DNA of 64,000 bases, taken from assembly GCA_008632985.1 (NCBI GenBank), contig QPGO01000093.1, positions 248,001 through 312,000 of the forward strand, given 5' to 3'. The stretch is from Psammoneis japonica (Eukaryota). Under the pieces are notes generated by a model. The model did not search any database. It was not told the origin of the DNA and saw only the letters and a list, made by a program, of their open reading frames with translations. Every line of letters starts with the position of its first letter. Positions within the stretch are counted from its first letter, which is position 1. Position numbers and translations under genes: made by a program. This document shows positions 49 through 47,943 of the stretch, one piece after another.

Positions 49-732
49 GTGCACAATGTTGGTGAAGAAGCTCGTAGGCAGGCGATGCTTTCAAAATTTT
101 GGGAATTGCATTTTTGGATCAAGCTCGCATTCACACGGATCGGTGTCATGGAGGAATTGAAGGCTCGTTTGGTGGAGAGGGAAACAGTCAAGTCGACACG
201 AAAGCAAGCAATGGTGCTTTTCATGGACACTGTCAAGAAACGGCTGAAATTCGATCGTAAGACTGACAAAAAGGCAGCGCGCAATTACACAGGCAGTGGC
301 CACAAGGAAGGAAATTAGCCCCACCTTGCACTCTGGAAAGTTGAGTCCGGAAATGAAAGCCCATGTTGACACCATCACAAAGGCGATGGGCAAGTCACAG
401 AATTGTCCAGTCTTTCAGGGTGCAGTTCACCGGGGTGCCAACATTCGTGGTGCACATTTCAATTTGTTGCGTCCTGGAGCCACCTTCATGGACCCGGCTT
501 TTGTGAGTGCCTCTCTGAAAGAGACTGTTGCTTGTGGTTTTCGTGGAAGCAAGAATGCACTCTTCAAGATTGAAAGTCCATCGGGTGTAAACGTGACAAA
601 GAATCCAAAAACAAAGCTGAGTCAGAAATTCTTTTTCGACCTGGCACTGTGTTCATGATCACGGCGGTTGAGGAACATGACGATCCCGAGTGCGGAAAGT
701 GGAAGTTTGTTTCAATGCGGGAGATTCATTGA
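49..732 (+). pseudogene. R-S-E class (VIP2/C3/ART-like) ADP-ribosyltransferase pseudogene, TpA-mutated, two frameshifts
   Basis: Joining frames gives YTGSG(H)KE..., GAV(H)RG, F.DPAFVS(A)S, LFKIESPSGVNV, then AESEILFRPGTVF...MREIH* (stop 730-732). These match the YRG, STS and ExE ART motifs with Y->H and T->A changes at TpA sites. Confidence 0.8.
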
Positions 733-1098
733 TTTTGGTGGAAATTGTCAGAGACGGATGCAGGTTTGGATTTAGAAGACAATGGCAACTGCAGAAAACT
801 TCCCGCTCTCTCCATCTGGAGGTGAGGTCTTGGGGGCCCATGTGGCACAGACAGGAGTGCTTGTTCCTGTCGCAGTGTGTGTTGTTGGCTGAGAAAGTGT
901 GCTGGTGACATTCTCAGTTGTCGTTCATTGTTTTCGCTCGCATTCTCTTTGTTGTGTTTGATTGCTTAATTTGCGCCCACCCTTCCATCGGATCCATCTT
1001 GCGGCTTGCACTGCAAACCCCAGCAGTGTTCCGGGGGTGGCAAACACAGATTGGTGGGACTCTTCCACGTCATGAGCAGTGGACTCATTCACACTAAA

Positions 1099-1494
1099 GA
1101 CGTGTTCCAGCTCTAGGTGGGACCTCGTACTACTGAACTGTGACACAATTATTTTTTATCATCCGTCGTATGTTTCGCGCGTACATTTCTACGTGTTCTA
1201 TTATAAAAAATTGTTCCACACTGCCTGTTTTGCGAAGCCAAAGGCTTTCTGTTATCTGCACTTATGTCAATAAAAATGCGCTGGGTATATTCTTTAATGT
1301 CTAAAGAATATACCCGGGCATACTGTAAAGAATGTACTTCAAGTGTGGAGGAGGAGATACGTTCGCAAAATTGCCTCTTTTTCTGTTGGCGATCATTCAT
1401 ATATGCATTGCTTAATAATTTTACTACGGAGCTCGCACGTAGAATTCTACGGGCCCAATGTCACAAAAAGTCCCACCTAGGACTGGAACCCGTC
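1099..1494. mobile_element. Non-autonomous DNA transposon (MITE) with 25-bp TIRs and 4-bp TSD TAAA
   Basis: GACGTGTTCCAGCTCTAGGTGGGAC (1099-1123) matches the reverse complement of 1470-1494 at 22/25. TAAA lies at 1095-1098 and 1495-1498. The interior is AT-rich and non-coding. Confidence 0.85.
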
Positions 1495-2189
1495 TAAAGC
1501 ATGGACTTAGTTGTGTGAGCCTTCCCCCCTTGTAGTTGATTTGGCTCATGTCTGACCTGGACATGTGGAGCAACTCCGGCAACCACCAATGGGAATTGCT
1601 CGGCTCAAGTCCTGTGGGCATGGTGGAAAAGGAGTCAGCAACTGCCAGCAGCAGCGAACGCGGCTCAAGCCTGTCCTTGCATGACTCCTCAAGACGTGAA
1701 TGACATTGTCCATGTTGTGACACAGGTTTGCATCCAAAAAGAAAAGAGTCGTCCTGTGAACAGCTCCATGATTGAGTGCACATTCAGTCGAATTGCTTCT
1801 GCCTTTCTCGCAACTTCAGATTTGGTGTGCTCACTTGGGCTGCGCGAGAACAAGACTGGCAGTGGAGGAGTCGCTGAAAGAACTGCTGCTCCCACATTCC
1901 AACGTTGATCTGCCGAGTTCACGTGGGATTGTGCACCGCATCACTGTGTTCATTTCTTTTTTTGCCATTGTGTCACTTTGAAAAGTGCAAAGCAGCCTTC
2001 CAAAACTGCTCCACACACAGTGGCACCATGCATGGCCCATTGTCCCAAAACTGACCCGAGTTGCAGAGGGGTGAGATTCCAATGCCGGGCCCACCACTGT
2101 TTGTGCCATGAACATTGCAAATGAGACATGAATTGACGAAGAAGCAAGAGACACCGAATGTCACTCAATTTCACTGCAAATGATTGGGG

Positions 2190-3000
2190 TTGCCTTGTTC
2201 CACCACCAAGCGTGTCATCCATGCCGTCCTCTGCATGCTTGAGAATGGTCTTCATAAGTTGGCTCACGACTTGAGTCTGTGATTTATTGAAGCGCAGTGT
2301 CAGAAATGACAACAGCGAGTGCAACTGAAAACACACCCACAACAACAAGAACAATGCCAACACAAGCAACCACAAGGAACTCACTTGATTGACAACATTG
2401 GTTCGATCCATTTCGGCCAACGGCTTCTCTGACAGCTTGGACAAGTTCTCTGTGAATCGTTCCAACATTTCTTGATGATGCTCAAAGCGCTCCCTTTGCA
2501 TGCTCTTGGTGTCATCCATCAAGTGGTGAGCAAAGGTGTGCCTGTGCTTCAAAACACACCCACACTCCACCAATTGGCCATCTTGAGAAATTCCACATTG
2601 GTCTCCCCTTGGCATCCGAAGTGGATTTCTTGCAACAGCACCATGCGTTGTTCCGTTTGCCGCAACTGCTTCTTGCCAAAGGCTTGTGCTTCGGCACGCG
2701 CGCGATGACGCTTGCAGCAACATGGACACCAACCCAGCTCTCATTTAGCCAGGACCGAATCCGATGGATCATCAGCATTGCCTTGGCATCAGGTCCTTCC
2801 AATCACCAGCACACACTCAACATGTGATTCGTGTCGGCAGTTGTTTGAATCAAATGCTTCACCACCACGGATGAAAGCTCATTTGAATTTTGAGCATTGG
2901 CGCCATTCCACAGCAGAACAGCAACTACAAGGACATGAAGCGGCAAAAGCATTGAGCATGTTGTTTGCCATGACAAGTGGATGTTTCACCATGGCAATCT
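2190..3000 (-). pseudogene. Ariadne-type RBR E3 ubiquitin ligase, C-terminal part, TpA-mutated pseudogene with retained intron
   Basis: QLVECGCVLK(H)R(H)TFA(HH)LMDD...RFE(H)HQEMLERFTENLSKLSEKP...NVVNQ|TQVV..LMKTILK(H)AEDG resembles the Ariadne domain (ECRRVLKYTYVFAYYL...QxxLE). A GT..AG intron lies at 2384-2277. Ends are approximate. Confidence 0.8.
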
Positions 3001-3251
3001 CTCAGAAAAAATGAGGGGTGATGTCGCGATACGATCATGTTGAAGTTGAAGATTGATTCGCGCTCCACCGCGCAAAACGACAACTTGTGGAAAGGACTGC
3101 AAGACGCTCATGACTCAAGTCAGTCACGAACGCTCGTCGTCGCTCATTTTTTCTGCCGCCGACAAAAAAATCTTTCGTGCGATAATTGTTGCAACACCAA
3201 TGTCAAGACAAGTTGCCATAAAAAACAACAAAACAAACTACCAGAATTACC

Positions 3252-3683
3252 ATGTTGCCGACGATTCGTTACCTGGATGATCATCTAAAAGATTCGTTAT
3301 TGTCTGGCAATCACAAGGGACAGCATATTGTACCCGTTCATTCATGTCTTGCTCACGTGCAAGTATCGATTCAGGCCTTGTTTTCTGCTGCCGATGATGC
3401 ATCTTCTCAACTTGCTGCCTTGGACGAAGACGCAAATGCAACTAGGATTGCACTTTCGGATTATGTGGCACGTTGTATTTTCAATCTTCAAGCACAGCAG
3501 CGGCAGCAGCAACAAGAATCATCATCTATTTTCGCCTCGGTTCAACTGTTGGATTGTTGGATCAGTGCATCGCCAAGAGCCGACGAAACAATGGCAACAG
3601 CAAGACAACAAGGACCAAGGTTGTACCGTATCCTCCGTATATTCGATGCGGAGGTTGAAACTCTGCTACTTGGGCTTGACTAG
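3252..3683 (+). CDS. Hypothetical protein (143 aa)
   Basis: ATG-initiated ORF with normal dinucleotide content; no recognised motif. Confidence 0.4.
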   Translation: MLPTIRYLDDHLKDSLLSGNHKGQHIVPVHSCLAHVQVSIQALFSAADDASSQLAALDEDANATRIALSDYVARCIFNLQAQQRQQQQESSSIFASVQLLDCWISASPRADETMATARQQGPRLYRILRIFDAEVETLLLGLD

Positions 3684-3689
3684 CTTCAT

Positions 3690-4863
3690 GAGATCACCCG
3701 GACGGATCTCGTTTGGCTTACGACAAGCCTCTTTAAGATCAGTCTACCAGTGCTTTCGCTGACATTCTTTGGAACAGTACGATGCGAGAAGGCAACGTCC
3801 GCAAGCCGCAAGCATCCAGGCGTTCCATGTCGACCTCTTCCTTCCAAATTTCCGCAAAAGTCAAATTCGTCAGCACCCAGAGCCATTTTTGTGAGAATGT
3901 TTACGAGGACATGTTCTCGCGTCCAAAAAGGCTGATTATTTTTTGGTGCGTTAGCTTCTGTTGCGGCAATACCTGACCCTGCTTTTGCCCGTCCTCTTGA
4001 AGATAGAAGTACATGTCGTCCAAATCATCAAATATTGCGACACTGTTGCGGTCATGGGCCTTCTTGTATTCTTTTTCAAGTATCCTCGTAATGCCCTAAC
4101 AATAGTTCCGATGCACTAGCCAGCGCCTTGTCATGATGCATCTTCGGGGCCTCTTGATCACCTTGATTCCACTTGCTCTGGACCATGCCGCAAGCAGCGC
4201 GGCAACGAAACAACATGAACTCTTATATGTTGCCAACAAACTTGTTCTTAAGAGAGTCCAGGTGCTCATATGCTAGAAAGCCTTGCTCGCCCAGTGCACA
4301 GACAGTCGTCAAAGGTCATGTACCGCAGCTCATCTATTTTCACTGGGTTGTCAATGGCCATGGCAATATGGTTGAGACTGGGTCGGAGGAACTCATCCTG
4401 CAGGACAACCGTATGACTGTCATTTTCGCTCACCGTCATCTTTGTCACCTCTGCCGTGGGATCCAGATCGTCATACAACTGTTGAACGATTCATTCTTCT
4501 GTTTTTCTGTGTCGATAGGCTTTTATAACCTTAACTTTCTCCACAAAGATCGCCGTATTGTAAAGCTTGATGGCCTTTGCTTCCAGCCTCAACACCATCC
4601 TGGATGTCACCCTTCTTTGCTAGATGATAGACTATGTAGTTCCAAGGCTGCCGTGCAGCGAAACAAAGTGGGTTATGGAGGATCCGTAAGTCGTTTTCAG
4701 TTACATTCGCGTCATCCGATTTCAGATAAGATCCATAAAAAGTGAGCAAACTGTAACGTTCGTTGGTCCAAACGGTCGTTGCCAGATCGAAGCATTCATT
4801 CGTCAAGTCTACCGACCTGTTGCAGGTATTATACTCATTTCGATTTCCACTAGACTTTCTCAA
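3690..4863 (-). pseudogene. Fragmented coding-like sequence of unknown family
   Basis: Several consecutive protein-like minus-strand ORF pieces separated by stops and frameshifts; TpA not depleted. Confidence 0.35.
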
Positions 4864-5184
4864 GTTTTGTCACTCAGTTTTGATCGGCGGGCGGATCAGC
4901 AAACAACAATAGAAATCGGTGAATTGATGGCTTTTCTCTACAAGTGTCTATCCCTACCGATATCTACACACAGTATGAAGCTTTCCAAACATGAAAGTCG
5001 ACGTCAATAGCTTTGTGTGAATAAGCAGAGTGCAAAGGCTACTTCTTCTCTGAACTTCCTCTGAACACCTTCAAAACTGTAGAAGTTTTGCTATAATTTC
5101 CTCACTTTATTCTCTATGTATCCGAAAATCGCTTGCTGCTTATTATTATGTCTGGTCACAACACCTTATCTCTTACCGTAAACC

Positions 5185-5873
5185 CTATGGAGAAAGATCG
5201 GCAAGAGGATCCTTTGGATCCAAAAATGCCTCGGGAACATCACAGGGTTCCTCGTCTTCGGACAAGACACACTCATCGCAAAACTTTAGCACTTGCTCGG
5301 GAGTAAGCTCAAACCTAAATAAGAAACAAAAGCATTTGTGTCAGCCAAATCGACGAAGACTATCAACTGTACGCAATCAAATCTCTCGTTTACTACCGTA
5401 CTTACATGTCTTCAAAGACCTCACAATTTCCCGTGGCCACGCATCGATCCGCACAATAGGCCTGCGGATCGTTGCGTGCCATTTTTTTGTCTCGTGCCTT
5501 TTCGCGTGGACTGATCAATGCTTCTTGCTGCAAGTAGGAGTCATCAACTTCTAAATTGTCTGGCAAATCCGACACGTGGACGGCAACCGCCTTTCGAAAA
5601 TCATCTGCAGCCTTCTTTTCGTACTCATCCTTGTGATCCTGACGGTACTTTTCCTGGTCAATCCTGAAACAACAATGTAGTGATTGAAACGTGAGTGAAC
5701 AATGCCAAAGCGACAAAACATACCGCAGCCAATCGCAAACAGTCTTACATGTCGGCAATCCGATCTTCCAAATTCAAAGTTGTCGCAGGACGAAAGCTTC
5801 TTGGTCCCGTGACAACAAAGGCCGACGTCGACGACACAAACAGGCATCCAACGATTGCAGAAGTCTTGAACAT
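5185..5873 (-). CDS. Small Cys-rich, probably plastid-targeted protein (3 exons: 5873-5749, 5663-5406, 5314-5185)
   Basis: Signal peptide with an ASAF-like site (MFKTSAIVGCLFVSSTSA-FVV). Two GT-AG introns splice in frame. The C-terminus reads CADRCVATGNC...FCDECVLSEDEEPCD...*. Confidence 0.75.
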
Positions 5874-6280
5874 GGTGAGCACAGAGTAGTTCGTTCTGTC
5901 GTTGATGGCAACAAAGTGATTGGCGAACAACGAAAGATGGGAATGCAAGAAGCAGACCGATCCGAACGAACAGAGAAAACGGCCATCACACGATTGCATC
6001 ACGACCTTCGTCGACTATCGTAAAAAGAGAACCACTGTGACGTGTGTGCTTCAACTCGTGACGCGAGGTTGTAGGTCACACACAAACACAAACAAAATGG
6101 CTTCATTTCAATCGCACATGAAACATCCTAAAACTGCCAGACAGACAAGAAAATGGCGCGCTTCCAATAATAACCTACGTACTCGAATACTCATCAAATT
6201 TAATATAAATCATCTCCGAGTTGAATATCTAAATAAGACCCGACCGCGACAATCACACAACACAACTCAACATCCTCACC

Positions 6281-7640: not shown

Positions 7641-10179
7641 TTATTGATCTGTTGGTAGGCTTTTGAACTTTGCTGACAAGTCTTGTTCTATTCTTGTGCC
7701 CGCCGTTGTTTCTGCTTTGCTAATGTAGAAACTCTTGTTGAGCGCGTTGGGGTCAAGGAGAGCGGTAGCACACACTTGGGCCACGTCAGCTCGAGACACT
7801 GGAGTTACAGCGTCGTTGGACTGCAGCAAAGAGTAGGGGAATATTTAGCATATCCTTTGCCGACGGAATGAACCAGCTAGAGAGACAAGCACAGACTTAC
7901 CGATTGCAACTCGATTGTGTTTGCATCTGCCGTTGGTAGCTCATTGTAGCCTCCAACCCGTATTATCGTGTAACTGCGAAAGAAAACATTGAACGTTAGT
8001 GGTGTGGGTTGGAATGACAGTCTCCTACAGAACGTCAGCGCTGTGCGTACCTTAAGCCGCTACTCTTGAGGATCTCTTCTCCTCGATACTTATAATATGT
8101 CTCTTCCTTGCTACGATCTTGTCGGTCTTGTGCGACTCGCTTCAACTCGGCCTCGTCCAGAATTCTATACGCCCCGTCATCACTGGAGGATGATTCAGTA
8201 TCCGTGACGAGACGCTTTGCCTTGTGGCGTATCATTCGACTTTCAACAACGGGTGGGATCCTGGCGTCACTTAAATAGATAAACTCGGGTTCTGGCTGGG
8301 ATCGATAAACCTTGATGTAACTCAAAGCCAAGTAGAATCGTTTGAACGCTTTGCCACCCTCGTCAGAAGTGTTCTTGTCTGGGTTGCTCGCGCTTCGATA
8401 ACGGAATCCAATCTGCCGAACGTCCTGACCTCGAAAGGGTGGGACTACTTGATCTGTACCTCCTTTGGTTTGAACCGGCTTGAAGTTGGCAAAGTCTAGC
8501 CGAACCGTCATGAACTTGTTCTTTGACTTGTTTCCCCGACTGAAGGGTTTCATCATGGTACTAAAGTCGCATACATACTCCACTCCATCGGTTTCATAAG
8601 CTCCCGTTCGAACAAAGGCTTCATAAGTGCCTCCATCTGCACACACACGACAGACAAACCCACCAAATCCATTGCTCAAATCAATACCGGCATCTGGGTC
8701 ATCCCTACTAGAACGAAGCCTGCTGCTCACAATGGCAGCCTCACCACCACCACCGGCATCTCCGGCTGGCACCTTGCCTACAAAGACGCCATGACCAAAT
8801 TCGTTCCTAACCCACTTGCAATGCGTTTTTGTTGATGCTCCAGCTTGTCGAGTTGCAGCAGCCGCAGCTTCATCTTCGTATTCGGCATATGGATCATCCA
8901 TGTCGTTGTATTTGTCATTCATCGCAGCGTAATAGTCATCATCGTCTTGGTCGTAATCCCCATAGTCCTCGTCGTCGTAGTCACCATACTCGCTACTTGG
9001 AGAAGACGATGCTTGAACCGTTTCACCTGCTGGCTCTGGCAGAGCTTGATCTTCGTCGTCAAAGTCCTCGCCATCGATTGCAAACAAATTAAAATCCTCT
9101 GCTCTGGATCCAAACTTGAAGAGAGAACGCTTTGCCGCTTGGGATGTGCCATAGTCGGCAAATCGGACATTCTGATAGGCTCTCACAAGATTCTTCATAC
9201 CGTTGTAATCCACCTGCTCCGCCAGTTTGGCACGTAGTTCAAGCACAGACTCGAGTTCCAACCAGTCGCTGTCACTCATGCTCACCTCACTCTTTCCAGG
9301 TTTGACCTTTTCGGCTCCATTCTTTCCATTGCCGTTTTCCAAGTTCTCGTCGACAAACTCTTGGAAACGATCCTGAAAGTTGGCTTCATCCAATCTCGGT
9401 GCTCCCGCACAAAATACAATCTTATCCACATCGGTAATGGCGTATTCCAAACTCTCCACCTTGCTCAAGTCTCCCTGACAATATGTCACGCCCGTGCCAA
9501 GCATATTGAGGGTTTTGGAGTACAAGTCACGCACTAGTACACGGACACGAAATCTGCCATCAATCAAGAGCCGTCGTACCACCAGCCTTCCCACTTCGCC
9601 CGTCGCCCCCACAACAAGAACTTCCGGTACGTAATCATCACCCGACAAGCGGTCAAACAGAGGATTGCGTTCTGAAAAGAGAGCTCCTCCCGGGCCACCC
9701 TGATCGGCAAATCGATCATCGAGATAATAAATGGATCGCCGCTCTGGAGAAACGCCTTGTGAACTTAGAGTGGAAATTGCGCTTCCAATCGTCTTGCGCA
9801 CCTTTCGTCCAGCCTTAAAGGGATCCAGCATGTTCAACAAACCCTCCTTCTTTTCTTCGTCCTTTGGCTCCTTGTCTTTTCCTAAAAGCTTGGCTGTGGC
9901 TTTTCCAATGGCTTCTTTTTTCTCATCCTTGTTTAGTTTTTTCTTCTTTCTCGGCTTTTTGTTTTTACTCTTCTTTTCGGGATTTTTATTTTCTTCTCCA
10001 TCGTTTGAGTTGTCGGTAGCAAAAAAACAGGAACGCTGTCGAGAGAGTATTTTGAAGCTGTTCCATACCGTCGCTCTCGAGCCTCTTCTGCCACCTGACG
10101 GAGCTACAGTCAGAAAAGCCGACGCAAAGCGGTGCTCCGTCAGAGCTGAAATCAGAAGAATTAGGTTCACTGTTCTCAT
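7641..10179 (-). CDS. Plastid-targeted NAD(P)-binding Rossmann protein with CIA30 insertion (HCF173-like)
   Basis: ASAFL presequence, VLVVGATGEVGR, a CIA30-like segment (GGFVCRVCADGGTY), and C-terminal LKSSGL/YTIIR and VSRADVAQVC in later exons. Confidence 0.8.
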
Positions 10180-11001
10180 CGTTTTTCTTTGGGAAACAGA
10201 TTATAGTTACACGCTACACTATCGGCCCTTCTCTTCGAACGACGAGACAACGAAAATAGACACGACAGGTTGTTGTCGTCGAATGCCAAGTGTCAAAGTC
10301 GCCAAGGTCGAGTGATGCATCGATCGAGTGCGAGTCGCGAGTTGTTAGCGCTGTCACGAGTTTGAAGCAAGCGGCATGATGTGGATCGCCTCTGTAGAAA
10401 TTGTACTGATGCCAACGCAACAAAAACCCGGATGTTGTATGTGTCTCAAATTTGAATTTCGCGAGTCTCAAATCTGCAAGATCTTGCGATGACACCCCTC
10501 GCCTTCGACTCGCTCCTCCATTTGACTTGAAGTTGCTTGGTTGACTAATTTTCACGGCCTTGCGGTGTTCTCAGCTGCATGGATTGCAACGAAAAAAAAT
10601 CTGGGGACAAACGACGGACGACACTGTGTGTTGATCAAGCGCAAACGCGACAGCACCCTTTCTCCATGCTACAACGAGCCCAGAAAAGGCAAAGGGTCTT
10701 TGCATTTATTGCAAGATGTAGTGATGTTGACTCTTGACCGCTTTACGATCCGTCTCAAATCACAAGGGGTGCAAAGACGTGGGCACAGTGTGAGTTCTCG
10801 GGAACCGAAATTGATGGGATTGTGAAAAGATTCTGCTTCAGAAAAATTCAGGCTTTTCCACAGATGATGGCGGACAGTGTCCCATGCAACCGACATGTCA
10901 AAGGAACATTCGCCGCTCAGGGTCATGGATTGGTCGAGCACAGGGACGGCTCTCGAAGGTTTGTGTTGGCGTTGTGTGAAAAGGTTGCCTGGTGCGACAC
11001 A

Positions 11002-12480
11002 TCACACCTCTTGCATCATCTCCTGCTGCCACCAATGTTGAATTGCATTCTTGCACTCTTTGCAAGAGTCCAAGACTTCAACCGAGGGAAATTCGTTCCG
11101 AGCCTCGTAGATCTGGTCCCATTCTTTAGCCACCTTCTTTTTGTCAAAATGACACACACCCAGTGCAGTTGGCCCACCTTCTTTGCCACAGAAGGCCATC
11201 AATGCACACTTTTTCAGTTTGACATCGTCAGTGCACATGGTGGCACAGTTCTGCAATGTGTTTGCAACTTGAAAAATTTCATAGAGAGATCGAAGAACTT
11301 TCATGTTGACAGAGTCAGGGAGAGCATCCAAGTGACAAAAAGGTTCACTGTTTTGTTCTCGAAAGTCGCATTGCATCTGTTTGAGCAGTTGGCTGGGTTC
11401 AAGGGTCACGGCATTAGCTGGCCACTGACGAGCATTCCCAACACCCCATTGCCTCCTGACAAACATCGCAAGTTCATCAAGAGATCCCAGGCAAAGGTTC
11501 CAATCATCCAAATGCTTGACAAAGTGAAGCCGTGGTTCACCATCGTGGTTCAGGACAGCGCTGATTCTCCTGCAGGCAGAAAGGTGGTTTGGGTCTAAAT
11601 CTTGCCACGCGTTGTGACTCTCAGTGATGGCGTCTCCCAGGTTTGAATGACCCATGGGCAAGAGTGACCCTTCATCGAGCAGATTGAGGAAGTGACCTTC
11701 CAACCAGAGATGAGGCAGGGTGACATGCCAACAGGGCCTGGGAGCCAGTGACCAGTTGCAGGCCCACAAATCGGAAATGATGTCTTGGTCAACTCTCTCG
11801 AGCATCAAGCACTTCTCAATCATCCTTGCAATGTCCCAGCAGACATTGTGCATCAGGAGGCAGCTCTTGAAGCTCCGATGGTGTGCCAAAAGCATTCATT
11901 GCAGCCCAAAGGACCTCTTCCTTGTGCACTCGCCGGTGCCTGTCAACAATGCAATTGCGCGCCGCTTCCAAATCAAAACTGCCCATTCCCTTTGTAAAAA
12001 CATCTGATCCGCGTGGTGGCCTCCACGCACCATTAAACTGGTGTCCACCACCGACTGGCTCCCACTTCGTAGATCCGTCCAGCAAGTGGCAAGAGTGTTC
12101 CAGGTTAGACTGCTTGTGCAGAAGACACGCGTGCTGCTTCAAGACGTGACGAGGGACCCCAAACAGGGCCTCAAAAGTCTGGCAAACAGCATGAGAATCA
12201 CGAAAAGCATTGGCTTTCTGGGCCTTCTCTGGATCGCCAAAGAGATTGCAGGCGCGATCGTGCCATGAAACAATTTGCTTGTTCATCCAACGGCATTGGC
12301 CCGGCTCATGGCTTGCACTGGGAGCGTCTGCATTGTTCGGCAGCTGAAAGATCACAGCGCCAGACACCAGCTGGGAAGTTGATGTCAGAATGAACGCTTC
12401 TTTTGGCACTGGGGCTGCAGTCGGGCTCACAGCGAGGTGTCCTGCAAGAGTGAGGACAGTGCTCTTCATCGTTTTTGATT
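11002..12480 (-). pseudogene. TpA-mutated gene with C-terminal PcfJ-like domain
   Basis: EIFQVANTLQNCATM(C)TDDV...(C)ALMAF...PTALG...QIYEARNEFP resembles the PcfJ pattern EL..EG..M.HCV..Y...V...T.E...Q..G..N..P. Recognised by eye only. Confidence 0.45.
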
Positions 12481-13385
12481 TGCTCCTTTTGCTCTGACTG
12501 ATGGTTGAAGAACAAACAAGAGAGCCCACGCATCAAAGTGTGTTCGCCCGCACAAAAATTGCCACTTGGCAATTTTCCGATCTCGGGTTTTTGAGCAGAG
12601 GGAATCTCGGTGTCGAACCGAATGACGCACAAAGATGAAGTTTCAGCTGTCGCGCATTTTGGTGACTTGGCGAGAGATGATCAGTGTTCCTGAGTGCAAA
12701 AGACGGATGCAGCGATTGAGCTCATTGCACCTTGCGGTCATGAACTGCATTCAATGTGCTCATCTTGCATTCTACATCAAATCTTCTCGCTGTGTCACGA
12801 GCGCCACACTCAAATCGCAGTTGACGCGCATGTTGCGCAGACCTTTGAGCATGTTTCAAACGTTTGTTTTCAACCAACATTCAAAACTAAAAGCATCTTG
12901 GAATGGAGCTGCATCAACTGCACACAAAAACATAACAAGAAGTGCTACATTCATTGTTTGGCGATGACACGATGATGCACAGGACACGTGCTGTCGGCTG
13001 TCGGTGGTCGCACGCGATGCCAAGCGGGAAAGCTGACAGAGCCATGGCTGCAAAGGATGAGCTGTTTTGCTTTTCTCATGATTTGATAGACTCAATAGAA
13101 AAGAGCAACAGTGCAATGGAACAACAAGCTCAAGGACATATAGACGAGTAAGAGTAAAGGCCAACGAGCGGCGTCGATGCGTCGGTCGTCATTTATTCAT
13201 GGCCCCTCGCCATAACTACAAGCAGGGCCCTACAATTTGAAATTTTGATTTTCTGGTTTTGGGGTCATTTTTTGATATTTTAGAAGAATCTGCCGCCGAC
13301 GCACAACCCGGAAACCGTCGTGTGACGTGTTCATGGCGGGAAACGTTCCAACCCACATCAAAGTATCCCTTACTACTCATCCACC

Positions 13386-14087
13386 ATGATGCTTCGTCCG
13401 CTGCTCAGCGTCCTCCTATTGATTAGGAGCCCTATTGTTGATTCATTTATTCCTCCTTCTCATCATACAGCGAGGCCATCATCAGAACTCTACAATGTCG
13501 AAAACTTCTTTTCAAATCTGTTTGGACCATCCGACCCTGTTACAAAAGCATTGACCAGCCGAAGAACCATTAATAATTTTGAAACTACCAAAGTCTCGGA
13601 TGATGTAGTGGAACGCGCCATTGAAGCTGCTATTTACGCACCCAATCACAAAATGACAGAACCGTGGAGATTTACACTGCTGGGAAACGAGACGATTGCC
13701 GCTATTGCCACCTTGAATGCTGCCGAAATTAGCAAGAAGGATCCTGCCAAGGGAGAAAAGAAAAAGGCTCGATGGGCAGCGATTCCGGGATGGTGTGTAG
13801 TTACGTCCACCAAATCGGATGGGGGACTACAAGAGAAGGAGGACTATGCAGCTACTTGTTGTGCTGTACATAACTTTTGTCTTTCGCTTTACGAACAAGG
13901 AGTCGGTACCAAATGGACAACGGGACCGATAACACGGACGAAAGAGTTTGCCGATTTATGTGGCATTGATCAAAAAACAGAAGAGGTAGTTGGATGCATC
14001 TGGTATGGCTTTGCATCAAACAAAGAGCCTCTGCCTGCGCCAAGGCGTCGAAAAAGCGTTGAGGATGTCACCCGTAGACGTGCGTAG
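13386..14087 (+). CDS. Nitroreductase family protein with N-terminal targeting presequence
   Basis: SRRTINNF, AIYAPNHKMTEPWRF, EDYAATCCAVHN, GVGTKWTTG and terminal RRRKSVED. Confidence 0.9.
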   Translation: MMLRPLLSVLLLIRSPIVDSFIPPSHHTARPSSELYNVENFFSNLFGPSDPVTKALTSRRTINNFETTKVSDDVVERAIEAAIYAPNHKMTEPWRFTLLGNETIAAIATLNAAEISKKDPAKGEKKKARWAAIPGWCVVTSTKSDGGLQEKEDYAATCCAVHNFCLSLYEQGVGTKWTTGPITRTKEFADLCGIDQKTEEVVGCIWYGFASNKEPLPAPRRRKSVEDVTRRRA

Positions 14088-14285
14088 CTTGATATTTTGA
14101 TAGTACATTGCAATGAAACACAGCGCGCCTACAGCTTAGTTTAGAGTTTTGATATGATTACATACTTGAGGGATTTGCTGTGCAGTTTGTCCTCGCGATT
14201 GTGGGGAAAGTCGTTTCGGATCCAGAATACAGCAGAGCAATGGGTAGGCTCCACTTCCGGTGAAAATGAGTGAAATCTAGCTAGA

Positions 14286-15227
14286 TTACTCCGCACAACA
14301 AGGCTCTGCTTTCTCGCTTGCCAGTAATCGCTCATGCCAAACGTGGAAGCGGAACAAGAAGCGGTCATCCTTTGTTACCGCACTTATGGACATTGGCTGA
14401 CCATCGAGTGTTCTTGTCATGTCAAAGCTCCCAAGTATCGGAACTTGCAAGAAGTATGTTCCAAGGTCAAGGACATTGTCATGACTATGAAACGTATAAA
14501 TATGGTCTGTGTCAAATGAGTAGTTGGATGCATGAATGGGTGTGGAAAGTTCCTTTCTCCGCTTGTCGGCGGATTTGTATTTGCGTCCAAGTAGTGCTGT
14601 ATTCTCGGGAACATCCACATCCAACATATTAGGCTGCTGGCCCGGTCGATCAATACTGAGACTGTGCGCACCACCAGCTAACAGCTCCAACACCCGTGGT
14701 TTGTTAGAGGCGAGGTCGACAATGACACCTGGTGACAAGCTACGGATGAACCTTTTAATGATGCTTCCAATTCGGTGCGGCGGAGCAGGGTTCAACGGTT
14801 TCTCAAAGATATCGCCGTGATATACTTCTGACATTTTCAACGGCTCTTTGAACTGCCCTTGAATAATGACTTGTTTGACTCGCTTCCTTCCTTCAAAATA
14901 CGCATTATGACTCGTCGGATCGTCTGACTTGGCATTGCGCAAACGTATCAGAATTCGTCCTTTGAACAGCGAACTCTCGAACTCGACTGGGACACCAATG
15001 GGAATAGGTTCGTCTCTTGTATATCCCCTCACTCTTGTGTCATCTGCTGTCTGTATAAGAACTGGTCGATGCGGCCATTCTTCGACTCTTGGAAGCAAAT
15101 CGTGTGTTTTCTCTTGCCCACGCAAGCTTTGCTCCTTCTGGGCAACTCTTGTAGATGCTGCTGCTTCTTTGAATACCATGGTGTGGACAAGGCAAATCAA
15201 CAGGAACAGTCTCTTTGTCGACTGCAT
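14286..15227 (-). CDS. DUF1769-family protein with N-terminal signal-like segment
   Basis: FESSLFKGRILIRLR...YFEGRKR...IQGQFKEP...GDIFEKPL and FDTDHIYTF; intact ORF. Confidence 0.7.
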   Translation of the reverse strand: MQSTKRLFLLICLVHTMVFKEAAASTRVAQKEQSLRGQEKTHDLLPRVEEWPHRPVLIQTADDTRVRGYTRDEPIPIGVPVEFESSLFKGRILIRLRNAKSDDPTSHNAYFEGRKRVKQVIIQGQFKEPLKMSEVYHGDIFEKPLNPAPPHRIGSIIKRFIRSLSPGVIVDLASNKPRVLELLAGGAHSLSIDRPGQQPNMLDVDVPENTALLGRKYKSADKRRKELSTPIHASNYSFDTDHIYTFHSHDNVLDLGTYFLQVPILGSFDMTRTLDGQPMSISAVTKDDRFLFRFHVWHERLLASEKAEPCCAE

Positions 15228-16693
15228 TACAGACAAGACGAAACGACATGGAAAATGTGCACTGTTGAATACAATCAAGGGGGCGATCAAGACCCCATCA
15301 ATCTTATCAACGCATCGATCGATGAGCAAGTGTGAATGACGTGTCGGAGCTATAGCTGTCGGAGCGGAGGCAGAATCCGCCCATCACGATTGACTTGCGA
15401 CAGCCACGTCACACAAACGCGAATGATGCGCGACCAAGAAGCATGACTCACGCCGAAGCCGAGCACATCACATCATTTTGGCAGCGACATGCTCAATGCA
15501 ACGTTTCGAAGCATACTCTAGCTAGAAGTATGTATGTGTCTGTTGAAGAACCTTAATATAGCATGATAAGTATGTTGCTCGATTGCGCCGACTTGGTGTC
15601 AGCTATGATATTTTAAGATAAGTCTGGCATTCATAAGCCTGTCGTAGGTCCCGCACTTAGCGACAGTCACGGCCAGCAAGCGAACTAGGTAACGAAGGGA
15701 AAATTGGGGTTTGGGGGATGCATCTCCTATAAAAGCTGGAAATGCGCAAACACTGTCTCAAAGACTACATTCGTAGTGACAGTACTGGGCTTGTCTCCAG
15801 TGGAGTTTCTTATAAGCTTTTTTTGGGACAAGATCAATGCTCCTAGACCTATGTATGAATTAGAGACGAAACTTCATGGCGACACACGGCACGCCGACCA
15901 TTTCTTGGCTCTCCCGTCCTTGACTGTAGCGAACACGTCCGGGGGTATCATTAAATTTAAATTATATCTGGGTCAAAACAATTACGTTCCTTGGAATGTG
16001 GATAGAGCCATGGGGTTGATGCTGGATGGTGCACTTACTATTGGGCCTTGTGCTACAAAGCCAATCAATTTTTTTCAAGTGTCGCGTTGGGTTCGAGCTG
16101 GCGTCAATCTGGGATCCTGTGCCATGACAAAGTGCATTTGGTACCTCGGGAGAGTAGGACAAGTCACCACCAATGCCTTGTCAAAGGAATACTTTTGCAC
16201 TAGCCGAAACAATAACGGCCTGAGTCACTACTTTGCCCGAATGTGGTTTTGCGACTAGATGACACATATCGGATTTGATTCTTTTCATCAAACATCCATC
16301 TCTAGAGACTGTCCTTGCCGACGCATGAGCAATCTTGGAAGTCTCACGCTTCTTGATGCGGACGAGCTCTTTGACGAGCTCGAGCACCCCACCACTCATT
16401 CGCTACTTCATTAAAGCAAATTTCAATCCGATCTGAATTGTCGATGATGCATAGCTTAGCTAGTTATAGACATCTTGATTCACGGTAGAATGTACGTAGA
16501 GGCGGCATGCGGCACGCCTCCTGTGTGCGTGCTCTCTTTGATGTGTAGCACAATTACCAATTACCGGTAAGAAATCTGTCTATTCGGCTTCCGCACCTTA
16601 GGTTCCTTGTAATACTTCCTCCTCGTGTGGACGAGATTGAGTACTTCACCACAGTCTCCCACTGCTGTACATATCTGCTCACTGTCTGTTGTC

Positions 16694-17698
16694 TCACACG
16701 AGCTTGGCTGTGATTGATCGTTGTCCAAATTGCCGTCCCTGAAAGAGTCGCTCCGCCTTTTCTGCATGAGCCTTGTCGGCAAATGTGACATACACGCGTA
16801 CCTCCGGCTGCTGCGGAGGCACCGCGTCCTCAACACGGACTGATTCCACTTTGCCACATGTTTCCTCGCACTCCTCTTGAACTTCGGCGGCCAAGTCGTC
16901 ATCAATATCTCCCGGGGCTGTAAGATTGGCCAGCAGCACCGTGAACCCCGTCTGCTGGACCGTATGTTGTTGCCCTTTATTATCACCAAGTTTGTCCTGT
17001 TGTTGCTGCACAAGCCACGCTGGCAAGTTGCTCATGCCCCGTCCTCGTCCACGCCCCATGCTCTTTTCGGCACGGTGTTGTGCAATCTGCTGTACGTCTC
17101 CCGTCTTTTCAACCGCTTGTCGTTCTTGTTCCAGTTGTTCTCGTAAACGCCTCTGTCTTTCCAACGTTTCCTTGGCGGATCGTTCCAATTCGAGTCGTTG
17201 CTTTTCGTGAGCCTTGCGTTCCCAATACGCCAACAAATCGTTTGGGACAAGAGGATCATACGGGTCCTTTACAGACGCGTGCAGCTGACGAAACTCATCC
17301 GAATCTTCCTCCATGAGTACCGGTGATAAAGATTCCTCTTGTTTTGATTCGTTGACTTTGGACTCTTCTTTGTTTGGAGCAGGTGTCGGTTCAGCGTGAA
17401 TAATTTCAACCGGCGCTGCAACCTTTGCAGCTGCAGGTACAACTGGTTTCACAACTCGATGCGCTAGATTGGTGGGAGCCGGACGTTTGCGTTGACGCAG
17501 CGTTGTTGGAACAAAGGCCATGGAAGTACCCGCCGAGCCAAGGCCACTCACGACTGATTTGTTCTTGTTTTCAACTTTATTTTTTGCTTCTTCTTCTTCT
17601 TTGCGTGCTTGTTCTGTCGCTGCGTCGTTTTGTGTTGATGTCCCATCGTTTTTCGAGTTTTTTGCCGACGGCAAATCACCAAACAGTCCACCATACAT
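16694..17698 (-). CDS. SPF45: Splicing factor 45 / RBM17 / DRT111-like
   Basis: N-terminal LFGDLP, YDPLVPND motif, RGRG..NLPAW, and a C-terminal UHM-type RRM (EVQEECEETCGKV...LFQGRQFGQR). Confidence 0.8.
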   Translation of the reverse strand: MYGGLFGDLPSAKNSKNDGTSTQNDAATEQARKEEEEAKNKVENKNKSVVSGLGSAGTSMAFVPTTLRQRKRPAPTNLAHRVVKPVVPAAAKVAAPVEIIHAEPTPAPNKEESKVNESKQEESLSPVLMEEDSDEFRQLHASVKDPYDPLVPNDLLAYWERKAHEKQRLELERSAKETLERQRRLREQLEQERQAVEKTGDVQQIAQHRAEKSMGRGRGRGMSNLPAWLVQQQQDKLGDNKGQQHTVQQTGFTVLLANLTAPGDIDDDLAAEVQEECEETCGKVESVRVEDAVPPQQPEVRVYVTFADKAHAEKAERLFQGRQFGQRSITAKLV

Positions 17699-17949
17699 TC
17701 TTTTTAATCTATTGAAAATTCGTCTCACAATAGGTATAGCAAGAGAGTAACATATACTGGATAGGTACAGGGGAGGGATGCGGTGACGATGATGTTACGT
17801 AGCTGGCTTGGCTCTATTGATCTATGAATAGATCTTGGACGCAGCGCGGTGCGCGGTTGCGGATGTTTGATGGCTGGAGATTTTCCGTCCCGCGTCCGTC
17901 CAGCGATCCGATTTGTGTCTGTCTGTCTATCTGTTTGTGCGCCAACATT

Positions 17950-19952
17950 GTCCTCCGATGTGCCAGTCACGTGTGGATGTTCACGATGCGAGTTGGTGCA
18001 GCCCAGCGGCACTGTCATCACATTTTGTTTGATCCAGATGGCTCACAGCATCAGCCAGCTGTGTTTTGTGAAAGACTTTTAACTGAGTGCCCATTTGGCT
18101 GCTCAGCAGCAGCCAAAACAAGCATTTTTGCTTGTGGTCTGCCTGCGACGTTGACCTGGAGTGGATGTCATCCAGTTGATGTGCTGAAAGGTGTGCTCAA
18201 AGCTCTCTGTGCACACACACGCTCAAGCTTTGACCATCTGTGCTCACCCAAACTGAGCTGACCTTGCCCTCTCAGTGCCTCCTTCACACAGGGGCTGTGC
18301 TCGACACTCATTTTGCTGAGTGACACCTCTGCCCTGTCTCTGGCACTGCCAGCAGCAGCCAATTTGTTGCATCTGGCCCCAGCACCCCAGCAGCCAATGA
18401 TTGTCAAGAGGCAGCTGAGAGTCCACCACTCATGCTGTGCAGCCCCAGGCTCTGATCCACAGCCCCATGGTGGCCTCCTCCCTGAGAATTGTCAAAACAA
18501 GAGCTCTGTGAGCTCATTTTCCCTGGTGGAAACATCCTGGATGGATGGTCAGACTCAACAGCATCAAGTGATCTGGGCACCAATGCTGCTGGCAGACATT
18601 CCCAGTGCACCACTGAGGATCTGCCTCCTCAGGAGCCAAGAGGCTGTTGACAAAGACTCTGCACCACCCTCTTCTCCCATCACACTGCCAGGATGGCGCC
18701 AAGTTGTCACCAGACAACAACGACGAGTCCAGTGATGAGGACTCATCATCACTGGCTGCTGCACACTGAGGGCCATGCACAGCTTTGCTGCGATGTTTGC
18801 TCCAACAGTGCCGCTGTTGCCTCCATGCACACACCACCACCCAAGCTTGCAATGGGGGTGGGTTGGTGCCAGCAGGCTGCTCCCATCAAGTTTCAAGGAG
18901 AAGAGGCAAGCCCAAGGCCAGCTGGCCTGGTCTGGACCCCTCCATTGACATCTTCCTGTTGCTGCCCAACCACCAGCACCAACCCCACTGCGTTGTGACA
19001 GCCTAAAAAAGAGCAGCCCATCTCCTGCCATGCTGTGCAGGGAAGCTTGGGCTTGGCAGATCAACTGTGTGTGTGCTGCCAGAAGATTGACTTTTTTGAC
19101 TGCAGGATCACCCCAAAGGGGTTTGGCGTTGTGCAGAAGACAGATCCCACTGGGCCTGCTCCTGTGTGCCACCTGTGCTGGACTCAGCCAATGCTGAGCA
19201 CCCTTGCAGCCCAGCAGCAATGAAGCCCTCCCACCAAAATGTCTGCCAAAACCTCACTGTGCCACATCTGTGGTCTGTGGCAAGTTGAGATGCTGGACAG
19301 GAATTGACCTGGGTGTTTCTCCCACTGGCCACATCGACAAGCTGTGCCAGCAGCAATGGGAGTGGTGCAGCAGTGGACAAGGTTTGTGGCACAGTTGCAG
19401 CAGTGGCAACTGCAGCAACCACTGATCCTGAAGGCATGGCAACAGACACAGCCAGGTTGTGCCAGCTGGAAGAAGAAGTGCTTGCTCCCAAGGATGGAGA
19501 GCTGACATCTGAGACTCTGTGGAAGGGGAAAACAGCAGCGCTGAGAAGTGCTCATTCTGGTCTGGCACAAATGACCACAGCAAGAAGCAGTTGGGCTCAC
19601 ATGACTCACCTGTTGCATCTAGCCCAGGTGCCACCAGTGTGTTCCTTGGCTGATCCCAGAGCACGGTGTGCAGCTTTTCACTCACTCCACTTGCTGTGTC
19701 AGTTGTGCTCCCTCACTGGTTTGTTGTGCTTGGGTGCCCTGTGCCCCATTGCATGGGTTTCACTCTTTGCTGCTGCTGGCTGCTGCCCTCCCCCACTTGC
19801 CTGCAGGGTGGTGCTGGCGCGACCCATCATTGTTGAGATTGTCATGTCCCTTGGCACTCTTGTTGTCTCCTCTCAGTTTGCTGGCACCTGCACCCTCTTC
19901 CCACGTGTTTTGAGCTCCTTCTTCCACCTGACAAATGCTGTCTCTCAAGCTC

Positions 19953-20012
<60 letters not shown>

Positions 20013-20560
20013 CTCTTTCCTGTCTGAAGACACAAGGTGGGCTTGGACACCTGTGCTGCTCTCCTTGCCACATGTTCACACCAATGCACACACAAAAACA
20101 TGCCATTTGAGATGTGCTGTGAGCAGGTGTTGCCACGACAAATGCCACCTTGGGCCATTGTGCATGTGCATCATAATTTCACATCTGAGGACATGCAGTG
20201 AACATGACCCCACATGCCCCCCTTGCATCCACATGCAAGACCACACCCTCAAAATGTGCACACTGGGGTGCTGAGATGTGCGCTGAGTGGGTGCTGCTGC
20301 GCTGTGTCAGTGGACTCGAGCACTCTTGCACCAACCTGGCCTCTCAAACATTCTTGCACCCACACCATTTTGACCACAGGTGCCATTGCTTCTGTTGCAG
20401 TTGCTGCTCCAGTGAACACTCTGGAGAACAATGGCGAGCTGTGAGCCACAGATGAGAGGGCGCTGTCTCTGCCACTCTTTTTCTTGCAGAAAAAATGCAA
20501 AAACACGATGTCACTCCCTCCCAGCTGCCCCCCAAAACACAGTGGGCACAATGGAGTGAG
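17950..20560. other. TpA- and CpG-depleted degenerate block
   Basis: Almost no TA and few CG over 2.6 kb. Six-frame translations are Cys/His/Gln-rich and essentially Tyr-free. Confidence 0.9.
19954..20011. repeat. (TG)n microsatellite, ~29 units
   Basis: Read directly from the sequence. Confidence 0.95.
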
Positions 20561-20849
20561 TCACCTCACAATTTTAGAAAGCCTGTTGATTGCCGCATCT
20601 GCTCATTTCTGTCGTACATTGTCAATTCTTGTCACCGTGGCGTGATTTGCTCAAAAAAAGCGCGAAAGTGTGGTGTCTGTTGGTTACCAGCAGGTTGTGT
20701 GCGTCGTTTCGAATTTCACGAGGTCTGTCTCCTCTTGTCACAAAACCTCGCGCGCCGGAAATCTCGCCTGCTGCTTTTTTCTTGCGTCTCGCATCTCGCT
20801 CGGCGCCTTCGTTTGCATCTGTTGTTGCCCATTTCTCAACGAAAGCATC

Positions 20850-21617
20850 ATGTCCTCCGGTCTTATCAAGTGTGACTGTATCGAGTGCCAGTCTGGGATG
20901 GCAATGCTGGATCCTGTGAATGGCATGCATGTGGACTTTTGCCAGAACTGTGGCCGTGCCTATTGTTACGGCTCCGGACCAACCTATGTGTCCTGTCCCT
21001 GCTGTCATCAATGCCAACAAGGAAAGTGTCTGGAAAAAGAAGATGCAGAAGAAGAAGAAGCAGAAGTCATTGAGCCTCCCAAGAAGAAACAGAACGTTAC
21101 CAAAAAGGCGACCACTCCCAAGATTCCTCTGGCGGAACAGTCGGAGATTCGCATGGTGCGCGCCTCGTCGCAGCAGGGTGAGTTCTTGGCCGAGAATGTT
21201 CTAATCGACGACAATGGCAAGACCTTTTGGAAGTCAGAGCCTATGAAACGAAAAGACCGCAAGGAACAGTATGTGGAATTCCAACTGGCGCCCGACAAGA
21301 GTGTGCGCCGTTTGGGGTCGGTCTCCGTGGACGAGACACGCCAGGTTGGACTGTCGGACTTTCGAATCGACTTTAGCGAGGATGGAACATTGTGGAAGCG
21401 TGGCTACTCTCTGTGGGGAATATCGTCGGCGGGGGACGGCGTACGTTCCAATCATGATCTTGGAAACATTGTGGCTCGCTCGGTCAGGATTGTGTGCGAG
21501 AAACCGAGATCGTTCAACTCCGGAGTTGGCTTTGCGTTTGTGCAGTTCAATCGTGTGGCCAAAATGAGGGAACCAGGTGGCATCCTTTATGATGAAGAAG
21601 AGAGTGGTGACTATTAA
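20850..21617 (+). CDS. Protein with N-terminal Cys-rich Zn-finger-like region and C-terminal galactose-binding/F5-8-like domain
   Basis: CDCIEC...CQNC...CPCCHQC, then RASSQ...AENVLIDD...FWKS...QYVEF...FSEDGTLW...ARSVRIV. Confidence 0.65.
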   Translation: MSSGLIKCDCIECQSGMAMLDPVNGMHVDFCQNCGRAYCYGSGPTYVSCPCCHQCQQGKCLEKEDAEEEEAEVIEPPKKKQNVTKKATTPKIPLAEQSEIRMVRASSQQGEFLAENVLIDDNGKTFWKSEPMKRKDRKEQYVEFQLAPDKSVRRLGSVSVDETRQVGLSDFRIDFSEDGTLWKRGYSLWGISSAGDGVRSNHDLGNIVARSVRIVCEKPRSFNSGVGFAFVQFNRVAKMREPGGILYDEEESGDY

Positions 21618-31900: not shown

Positions 31901-32169
31901 GGTGAAACGAAAAAAGATTGTGCTGTTGCCAGAAGGTTGTCGCGCGCGGTTAGTCGGCGGTCATCCTAACAGGGGATCGAGCTCTAAAATACGAGCTCTT
32001 TTCGTTTGTTTGGCTGAGTACACGGACATCAACCAGCTTTTTGGATTTGCAGAGCAATCATCTCCACTCCACCCGTCAGACATGTACAAGGTCTGTTAAT
32101 TTTATTACGTCATTGTGGCAGCCAAGGTCGGTTGCAGGCCTGGGAGGAGAGAGAGAAAAAGCACAGGTC

Positions 32170-32346
32170 AGGTGCAAATCATCATGATGCTCTGCATGTT
32201 TCTTGTCCTCGCACCACAATGACGAAGCCCTGATGGAAGCCCAACTTTGCAAGCTTTTCACCTGAAACTGTCAAGAACATCCACTGAAATCAGAAGTTCC
32301 ATCAAACAGGGTTTTTCTTGTTCCACATTGACACATCTCAAACATG
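32170..32346 (-). pseudogene. Mutated copy of the ceramidase 3' coding end and 3' flank
   Basis: Aligns to ~54368-54539; GTRKTLFDGTSDFSGCS versus GTRKILFGGTSDFSGCS in the intact gene. Confidence 0.9.
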
Positions 32347-32369
32347 ACTTTGCAAGGAATGCAGGCAAT

Positions 32370-33249: not shown

Positions 33250-33285
<36 letters not shown>

Positions 33286-47900: not shown

Positions 47901-47943
47901 TCCAGCTGACTCGCTCATCACAATCTGCCAACACAAGGCATGC

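Follow-up and report, generated by a model that had tools for sequence, protein, structure and literature searches.

Two linked mutation processes of different speed, at TpA and at CpG, probably act in silenced DNA of the diatom Psammoneis japonica

Deamination of 5-methylcytosine turns CG into TG or CA, and repeat-induced point mutation (RIP) of fungi turns CpA into TpA. A process directed against TpA itself has been described for the alga Bigelowiella natans, for which the main text of a preprint reports TpA-specific hypermutation of integrated DNA from NCLDV (nucleocytoplasmic large DNA viruses) and from virophages, at a rate about 1000 times the background per generation (bioRxiv 10.64898/2026.01.13.699255); this preprint was the only direct precedent found in the openly accessible literature, outside which most subscription papers lie. 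For CpG in diatoms, the passages seen of PMC9998398 describe DNMT5a-dependent CG methylation of transposons in Phaeodactylum. In the present work, a 64,000-nt stretch of contig C94 (positions 248001–312000; hereafter, the window) from the 91-Mb assembly of the diatom P. japonica was analyzed together with related copies elsewhere in the genome, and the starting point was a block at 10440–12881 (the focal block) in which TpA is nearly erased and part of the CpG is kept. It is probable that these silenced chromatin domains are subject to two mutation processes that yield identical products and differ greatly in speed.

The borders of the focal block were set by two-state segmentation, and dinucleotide contents are given as observed/expected ratios (o/e). 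The block contained 15 TA versus 153 expected (TpA o/e = 0.098) and 104 CG versus 153 expected (CpG o/e = 0.68), which corresponds to a TA-erased domain of an early-to-middle stage and agrees with a first-pass annotation of the window, where 10310–13000 had been described as TA-poor and CG-keeping. TpA and CpG o/e were 0.50–0.54 and 1.01–1.04 in three genic stretches of the window and 0.03 and 0.10–0.13 in its old blocks; CG was far more frequent in the focal block than in the old block at 41600–50300 (odds ratio 8.9, P = 7 × 10−37) and less frequent than in the genes (P = 8 × 10−6). The statement that the block keeps many CGs was true of its edges (CpG o/e = 0.85) and less so of its core (0.39 at 11000–11900; P = 4 × 10−5), and this V-shaped profile suggests that 11000–11900, where CpG is at its minimum, may be the part silenced longest. 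Per kb, the block had changed by −26 TA, −21 CG and +46 TG and CA, so that losses were balanced by gains. The other zones named in the annotation had the composition ascribed to them: TpA and CpG o/e were 0.10 and 0.65 at 1–1090, 0.02 and 0.64 at 38050–39200, and 0.16 and 0.86 at 41150–41500 (TA-poor with CG kept), and 0.03 and 0.13 at 18050–20500 and 0.03 and 0.12 at 41501–50700 (both steps depleted, as claimed for 18.0–20.5 kb and most of 32–50.7 kb); the quoted motifs gcgcgccgc (near 11957) and cggcgacg (near 41157) were also present. Assembly error is unlikely for the focal block, because contigs of run X1, a non-independent run that possibly represents the source sample, carry the same TA-poor letters at 9979–11948 (9 differences) and 11950–17824 (7 differences). 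Such blocks are widespread: TpA o/e was below 0.2 (TA-poor) in 185 of 464 survey windows of 500 bp taken from the 64-kb window, its contig and arbitrary stretches of contigs C1 and C2, and about 37–40% of the sampled DNA was converted to near completion (o/e about 0.04).

The direction and speed of the losses were determined from copies of Copia retrotransposons (150 of 804 candidates of a reverse transcriptase search were scored), with the substitution spectrum counted at sites with unchanged neighbours. In a pair with 90% identity (L022 and L048), 109 of 123 TA read TG (54) or CA (55) in L048, 8 were kept and 1 change was in the opposite direction, whereas CG was kept at 94/122 sites and changed at 25/122. 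In another Copia family, 29 loci formed a series in which the losses of TA and CG passed from 1% and 2% through 75% and 3% to 90% and 50%. TA sites had undergone 971 transitions versus 5 transversions, and on the sense strand of the elements, TG (724) was more frequent than CA (540). Conversion of TA proceeded at about 190 times the background per base, a value obtained from copies and conditioned on converted domains, and the approximate TA:CG hazard ratio was 23 in partly converted and 33 in strongly converted parts; the view of the first-pass annotation that TA→TG/CA is a fast, directional, primary process and CpG decay a slower one was thereby upheld. CpG decay in converted stretches was about 6 times the background, with CG>T raised (92/3451 versus 16/3457) and C>T at CA, CC and CT not raised (at CpA, 3/8109 versus 8/9047). 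A>G at AA, CA and GA was 3–6 fold higher in converted parts, the preference for TA over other adenines being about 100–200 fold.

The behaviour of individual copies separated the two losses further. When both were compared per copy with neutral divergence, as had been proposed in the annotation, CG loss followed divergence at other sites (rho = 0.89 for 29 copies; 0.79 for the 12 with more than 60% TA loss), whereas TA loss did not follow the background: the 18 copies with a background below 0.95% had lost 1–75% of TA and 0–7% of CG (TA loss versus background, rho = 0.34, P = 0.17). The loss of TA acts as a switch, not as a clock. Two of the 20 elements fetched had a single long terminal repeat (LTR); in the remaining 18 LTR pairs, 93 of 168 differences were TA lost in one LTR (75 in the 5′ LTR and 18 in the 3′ LTR), the rest being 29 differences at CG, 12 TG/CA swaps and 34 others. 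Since these 93 losses are private to one LTR, TA changed on the chromosome after insertion. Outcomes at shared sites agreed at 51–80% in 36 pairs of copies; therefore, most events were independent, although one or two pairs may share descent.

The term "uncoupled", under which the two losses had first been described, was not supported. In the converted parts (at least 60% of neighbouring TA converted) of 14 young copies, 979/1195 TA and 93/1818 CG were lost, against 35/1412 TA and 16/1760 CG in the unconverted parts of the same copies; that is, within the same retrotransposon copies CpG loss was 4–7 times higher where TA was converted. The difference in CG loss held in the 5′ half (64/1292 versus 5/376, P = 0.001) as well as in the 3′ half (29/526 versus 11/1384, P = 3 × 10−9). 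None of 264 TA-normal survey windows had CpG o/e below 0.3, whereas 46 of 185 TA-poor ones kept CpG at 0.3 or above. The two depletions were correlated overall (rho = 0.72 across the 464 survey windows). They follow one another along an L-shaped path and are neither independent nor proportional. From edge to core of 15 blocks, TpA was flat (0.04–0.05) and CpG fell from 0.60 in the outer 200 bp to 0.155 in the core, and no significant relation was found between the length of these 15 blocks and CpG (rho = −0.40, P = 0.14). Thus, TA and CG losses are separated in rate and joined in place.

Partly converted copies indicated where conversion starts. In a 6.6-kb Copia element, the region 350–3000 was more converted than 3000–6230 in 11 of 12 partly converted copies; one copy had LTRs 99.7% alike and an interior converted by 58–72%, and one nearly unconverted copy adjoined an old block. 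Three copies (L117, L119 and L125) were partly converted with TA-normal flanks on both sides; in this family at least, the start is therefore internal and is not leakage from a neighbouring block. Within the Copia element, conversion begins in the 5′ half and extends from there, separately in each copy. The hit rate depended on the base after A: 0.47 for TAC (559/1188), 0.37 for TAT (340/911), 0.24 for TAG (194/814) and 0.16 for TAA (114/735), and copies of a miniature inverted-repeat transposable element (MITE) gave the same order. The residual TA of the window blocks (82 counted) stood mostly in CTAA, CTAG, GTAA, CTAC and TTAA. It should be noted that the substrate loop of TadA is UACG, and that a 3′ preference of TadA was not found stated in the literature passages. 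The TAC-first context is a hint, by analogy, toward TadA and not toward ADAR2, for which the part seen of PMC10661471 gives UAG as a hot spot.

Elements nested in converted DNA behaved in two ways. The MITE at 1098–1495 (398 bp, present in high copy number, with terminal inverted repeats of 26 bp and a target duplication of 2 bp) kept its 33 TA intact though both flanks are TA-poor. A series of 37 copies was compiled (L163–L185 and L266–L279), in which TA loss followed flank CpG (rho = 0.72, P = 4 × 10−7; 0.65 after removal of flank TA and background): 37/428 TA were lost at flank CpG below 0.45 versus 434/790 above, with a background of 16/2475 versus 22/4580. The loss did not follow the background (rho = −0.25), nor age, for which the opposite sign would be expected. 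Of 14 copies added later as a check, 12 were heavily converted, all with flank CpG of at least 0.49, and the two others had flank values of 0.34 and 0.93. The 2-bp target duplications of the MITE varied in sequence. Its flanks were TA-poor in 33/37 copies compared with about 40% of the sampled windows, and this placement suggests that the MITE prefers converted DNA as a target or that insertions into genes are selected against.

The second nested element, at 41120–41568, is a 449-bp LTR-type element (a solo LTR or similar to terminal-repeat retrotransposons in miniature) lying in old DNA, with TG...CA ends, 109-bp terminal direct repeats and a 4-bp target duplication (GTTT); a duplication of 4 bp accompanied 17 of 17 copies examined. 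It contained 4 TA and 26 CG. In the set of its copies, L106 was dropped as a duplicate, L096 representing the same insertion, and L104 and L109 shared flanks; the flanks were TA-poor in all 16 copies fetched (L099–L114). LTR-type elements may start conversion themselves, and passive passengers would depend on the state of the domain, which would be most active as long as it retains CpG. Dating of nested insertions by CpG, which had been suggested in the annotation, worked for rank order, inserts being richer in CpG than their flanks (13 of 15 copies of the 449-bp element, and 21/23); it did not work as proposed in that the clock starts at silencing and depends on the distance from the block edge, and the focal block itself is not a nested element. 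CpG content is a rank clock for time since silencing, not since insertion, and is distorted by block edges.

As to what the focal block was before conversion, two overlapping frames at 11002–12469 on the minus strand, with a break near 11820–11835, are one broken gene similar to an unnamed protein, P0002 (identity of 48% in 224 residues and of 42% in 129). Of 14 aligned Tyr, none was kept (5 His, 4 Cys and 5 other or gap), whereas Phe and Trp were kept at 18 of 26 positions; the nine replacements by His or Cys are those that TAY→CAY/TGY predicts. No name for the gene was obtained by Pfam, a word-indexed protein search or Atlas; a full HMMER scan gave 43 relatives, unnamed or "hypothetical", and in 5 of the 12 scanned among these 43 a PcfJ-like match lay below the cut-off. 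Searches at the DNA and protein levels located the block at a single place in the assembly, the only other match being a 35% paralog on contig C146, with the reservation that a partner may be lost or unassembled. Its depth in run X1 was gene-like (54.5–59.5 versus 52.6–75.4 for the neighbours), and no convincing terminal repeats were found around it. Run X2, which has intron-like joints elsewhere, gave no cover over the block, and this is not evidence of silence. The focal block is best read as a putatively silenced, mutated single-copy gene of host type, not a nested insertion. Its neighbours are normal in TA and CG: an NmrA/NAD(P)H-binding gene on the left (8035–10200, minus strand) and a nitroreductase gene on the right (13326–14087, plus strand), the best named homologs of which are from the diatoms Amphora, Aulacoseira and Cylindrotheca. 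The genes of the window are ordinary eukaryotic ones.

These results fit the following course of events. After insertion, T:A in TpA is converted to C:G on either strand, in the order TAC>TAT>TAG>TAA and with a slight leak to other adenines; in a Copia family this conversion begins in the 5′ half and then extends, separately in each copy. The converted stretch then loses CpG, 23–33 times more slowly than TA and presumably through deamination of methylated CpG, of the DNMT5 type by analogy with Phaeodactylum. Passive passengers such as the MITE would undergo rapid conversion only where the domain retains CpG, for which the correlation was observed and causation is presumed, and the mutator would reach its highest activity in silenced DNA that is young and CpG-rich, or at places where conversion is started by an LTR. 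The focal block may represent such a domain part-way through its CpG loss, formed on a single-copy gene.

Several points weigh against this reading. The CpG count within 40 bp did not predict which TA was hit, and CpG density along the Copia element did not explain the gradient of conversion (rho = 0.39, P = 0.13). The 449-bp element was converted whatever the CpG of its flanks (rho = 0.10, n = 15, with one duplicate pair left in), and after duplication in a CpG-poor host it had accumulated 5 TG/CA swaps and 2 TA differences in 438 columns; since its TA loss continued there, old domains are not inert. The MITE series is a sample of 37 of 1547 candidates, and one of its copies (L275), with CpG-rich flanks (0.93), lost 5/33 TA. 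The "hot" parts were defined by neighbouring TA loss, so that the rate ratio is approximate, with values of about 10–40 for single copies. The model leaves unexplained what silenced the focal gene, and silencing, CpG methylation and deaminase action are states that we infer from sequence.

With about even chances, the enzyme responsible is a deaminase of adenine of the TadA/ADAT type acting on DNA, as proposed for B. natans. Nine matches to the PF00383 deaminase domain were found in the genome, including a TadA-like gene (133 bits, cut-off 150) and a weaker TadA/ADAT-like gene; it counts against the candidate that any eukaryote should have such genes for the editing of its tRNA and that they showed no expansion here. 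One open frame (L141:313–1785, minus strand) joins a TadA-like deaminase domain to a following DIOX_N/2OG-Fe(II) dioxygenase. A multi-copy family resembling C5-methyltransferases (83–91% by tblastx) occurred in TA-poor DNA with CpG of 0.5–0.9 (L151, L152, L153 and L157, on contigs C301 and C297), with a copy of a later stage on contig C28 (L160) and related unconverted genes (L147, L148 and L154). A wider proposal, which we put forward only tentatively and hold to be somewhat doubtful, is an A-to-G editor of double-stranded genomic DNA, guided by chromatin and self-limiting, which would serve genome defence across algae of the Stramenopiles, Alveolata and Rhizaria (SAR): a DNA adenine deaminase would be recruited by young CpG-methylated heterochromatin, started at LTR promoters, spread over kilobases without a second copy and wind down with the loss of CpG, having rewritten over a third of the genome.

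Among other explanations, an error-prone polymerase that places G opposite template T, similar to Pol iota and acting in repair patches or in the replication of silenced DNA, survives best and is still unlikely. Opposite T, human Pol iota favours G over A, according to the part seen of PMC3031609, five loci with a Y-family polymerase domain (unclassified) are present in the genome, and the rise of A>G at AA, CA and GA in converted parts also speaks for it. Such a polymerase agrees poorly with the preference for TA over other adenines and the near absence of transversions reported above; same-strand runs were not in excess (606/1118 versus 589 ± 13, P = 0.09), and the lack of dependence on CpG within 40 bp is contrary to the prediction for a patch at a deaminated CpG.

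Thymine may alternatively be the modified base, a DNMT4/RID-like or oxidizing enzyme marking the T of TpA and thereby making it pair with G, as a chemical cousin of fungal RIP; we know of no such chemistry and regard this explanation as improbable. TpA is self-complementary, like CpG, the frame at L141 combines a deaminase-like domain with a 2OG-Fe(II) dioxygenase, and 27 unclassified matches to the C5-methyltransferase domain (PF00145) occur in the genome. In the available part of PMC9998398, diatom DNMT4 groups with fungal RID and has no known function. It counts against this explanation that DNMT4 occurs only in diatoms among the microalgae surveyed in that paper and that the same signature is known from a rhizarian. 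A search for TET/JBP domains gave no match here and none in the control genomes either, which makes it uninformative.

The strong form of independence, in which TA and CpG losses have nothing to do with each other and CpG simply dates the insertion, is very improbable. It could draw on the TA-poor survey windows that keep CpG, on CG loss tracking neutral divergence, and on 14 of 80 metagenome Copia loci that were CpG-poor (<0.3) with TA at 0.5–0.84, some of these being one element in several samples. In the genome of P. japonica, however, CpG decays in converted domains alone and at a raised rate there, the unconverted halves of inserted elements barely lose CpG, and edge and core of blocks stand fourfold apart. 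The metagenome Copia relatives L254, L258, L259, L263 and L264, from other organisms, had CpG o/e of 0.03–0.18 and normal TpA, so that CpG can be lost elsewhere while TA is kept. In the 80 metagenome Copia relatives analyzed, of 218, no window had TpA below 0.25; because Tyr is part of the search patterns and young copies are favoured in such assemblies, this tells little of how widespread the process is. An origin at the RNA or reverse-transcription step (ADAR-like editing), a native low TA or an assembly artefact was rejected as having a negligible chance: many targets are retroelements and TG exceeds CA on the sense strand, but both strands are hit, differences occur between the two LTRs of a single copy, the targets also include a DNA transposon and host-type genes, UAG, the ADAR2 hot spot in the part seen of PMC10661471, is a weak context here, run X1 contigs repeat the same letters, and the LTR pairs and the MITE series rule these origins out.

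Other parts of the window represented further stages. The stretch 8–1089, poor in TA but with CpG retained, forms the end of a larger block extending further upstream on C94, with CpG dropping there to 0.05–0.4; a remnant frame at 248–658 (plus strand) matched ADP-ribosyltransferase (ART, PF01129). The same block resumes to the right of the MITE (1536–3178), and comparison of 2173–2783 with its unconverted paralog L280 showed 20 of 21 TA turned into TG or CA and 17 of 37 CG kept; at 2424–2626, a relative in run X2 differed by many G>A changes, which is consistent with an unconverted paralog. In the late-stage block at 17833–20863, the TA-poor zone extends about 180–270 bp past the CG-poor zone (18010–20593), and at the right end of the composite late-stage block at 32110–50722, consisting of decayed repeats depleted of both steps, by about 420 bp (the CG-poor zone ends at 50302). 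At the left edge of the latter, neutral ceramidase fragments (32215–32425) correspond to 54408–54542 and 55892–55980; the decayed copy at 32215–32349 (plus strand) is 79% identical to the part of the neutral ceramidase gene at 54408–54542 and kept 0 of 5 TA and 0 of 6 CG. A discrete repeat unit at 37935–39348 (CpG o/e = 0.62, copies on two other contigs, 87–88%) is likely nested in this CpG-poor host; no target duplication was found for it. The segment 37935–43104 and L096 (contig C117) form a duplicate or second allele of at least 5.2 kb with 98% identity, in the old parts of which CG differences (21) exceeded TA differences (3), as expected because TA was already exhausted. Old internal duplications with 71–87% identity and many TG/CA swaps were found between 39993–40860 and 41990–43580 on the one side and 48391–50082 and 45749–46661 on the other. 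Frames at 46709–47573 (minus strand) resembled retroelement gag, had no Pfam match and presumably hold a damaged zinc-knuckle motif. Microsatellites in old blocks included (TG)29 at 19954–20011 and (GA)12 at 33261–33285.

Rewriting of A:T to G:C at TpA has one direct report so far, in an unrelated alga, at least in the literature seen; a second lineage in which it is near completion over much of the genome would make it more than a curiosity and point to a general defence. Copies that are half converted supply what the first report lacks, namely the start site, the direction of spread, the four-base context and the link to CpG-rich silenced DNA. For practice, LTR divergence or Kimura distances would give far too high ages for diatom repeats if TA and CG sites were left in, the long frames without stops that persist in dead elements are open to mis-annotation as genes, and residual CpG may serve as a rough clock for when a region was silenced.

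Compared with RIP of ascomycete fungi, which is premeiotic and involves a RID/DNMT4 methyltransferase, the process is likewise a host-driven, dinucleotide-specific transition hypermutation of repeats after insertion that reaches neighbouring DNA. Its direction is opposite, and RIP was rejected: TpA is destroyed, not created, and C>T at CpA is not raised. Unlike in RIP, copies that are almost identical differ strongly in how far they are hit, conversion proceeds from one end, and no strand runs were found. As to the duplication trigger of RIP, a single-copy target is hit and many near-identical copies are nearly untouched, but a lost partner of that target is conceivable. Methylation-driven CpG decay of diatoms shares CG→TG/CA confined to repeats and silenced DNA and would explain the slow second process, methylation here being presumed by analogy with Phaeodactylum; it does not account for the loss of TA.

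The closest match is with B. natans. As far as the main text of the preprint describes it, both processes consist of TpA→TpG/CpA transitions on both strands far above the background, act on chromosomal DNA after integration (here, the 93 one-LTR losses in 18 pairs) and are regional, being active in some lines or copies and inactive in the rest (here, 1–75% TA loss at equal background). The B. natans process can hit single-copy DNA, and the focal block was found once here, with the possibility of a lost or unassembled partner; an ADAT-type deaminase was proposed there, and TadA-like genes, candidates for such an activity on DNA, are present here. The two systems differ in host and target (viral DNA in a chlorarachniophyte; LTR elements, a MITE and host-type genes in a diatom) and in extent, TpA o/e being 0.45 in the B. 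natans virus region and about 0.04 in converted DNA here; the rate figures differ in kind, about 190 times the background per base from copies here and a per-generation value there. On the evidence of the letters, the process in P. japonica thus appears to share the features of B. natans hypermutation. The words "CpG", "diatom" and "trinucleotide" occur 0 times in the main text of the preprint, the supplements of which may hold context data; relative to that main text, the 3′ context, the 5′ start with spread and the link to CpG decay are new.

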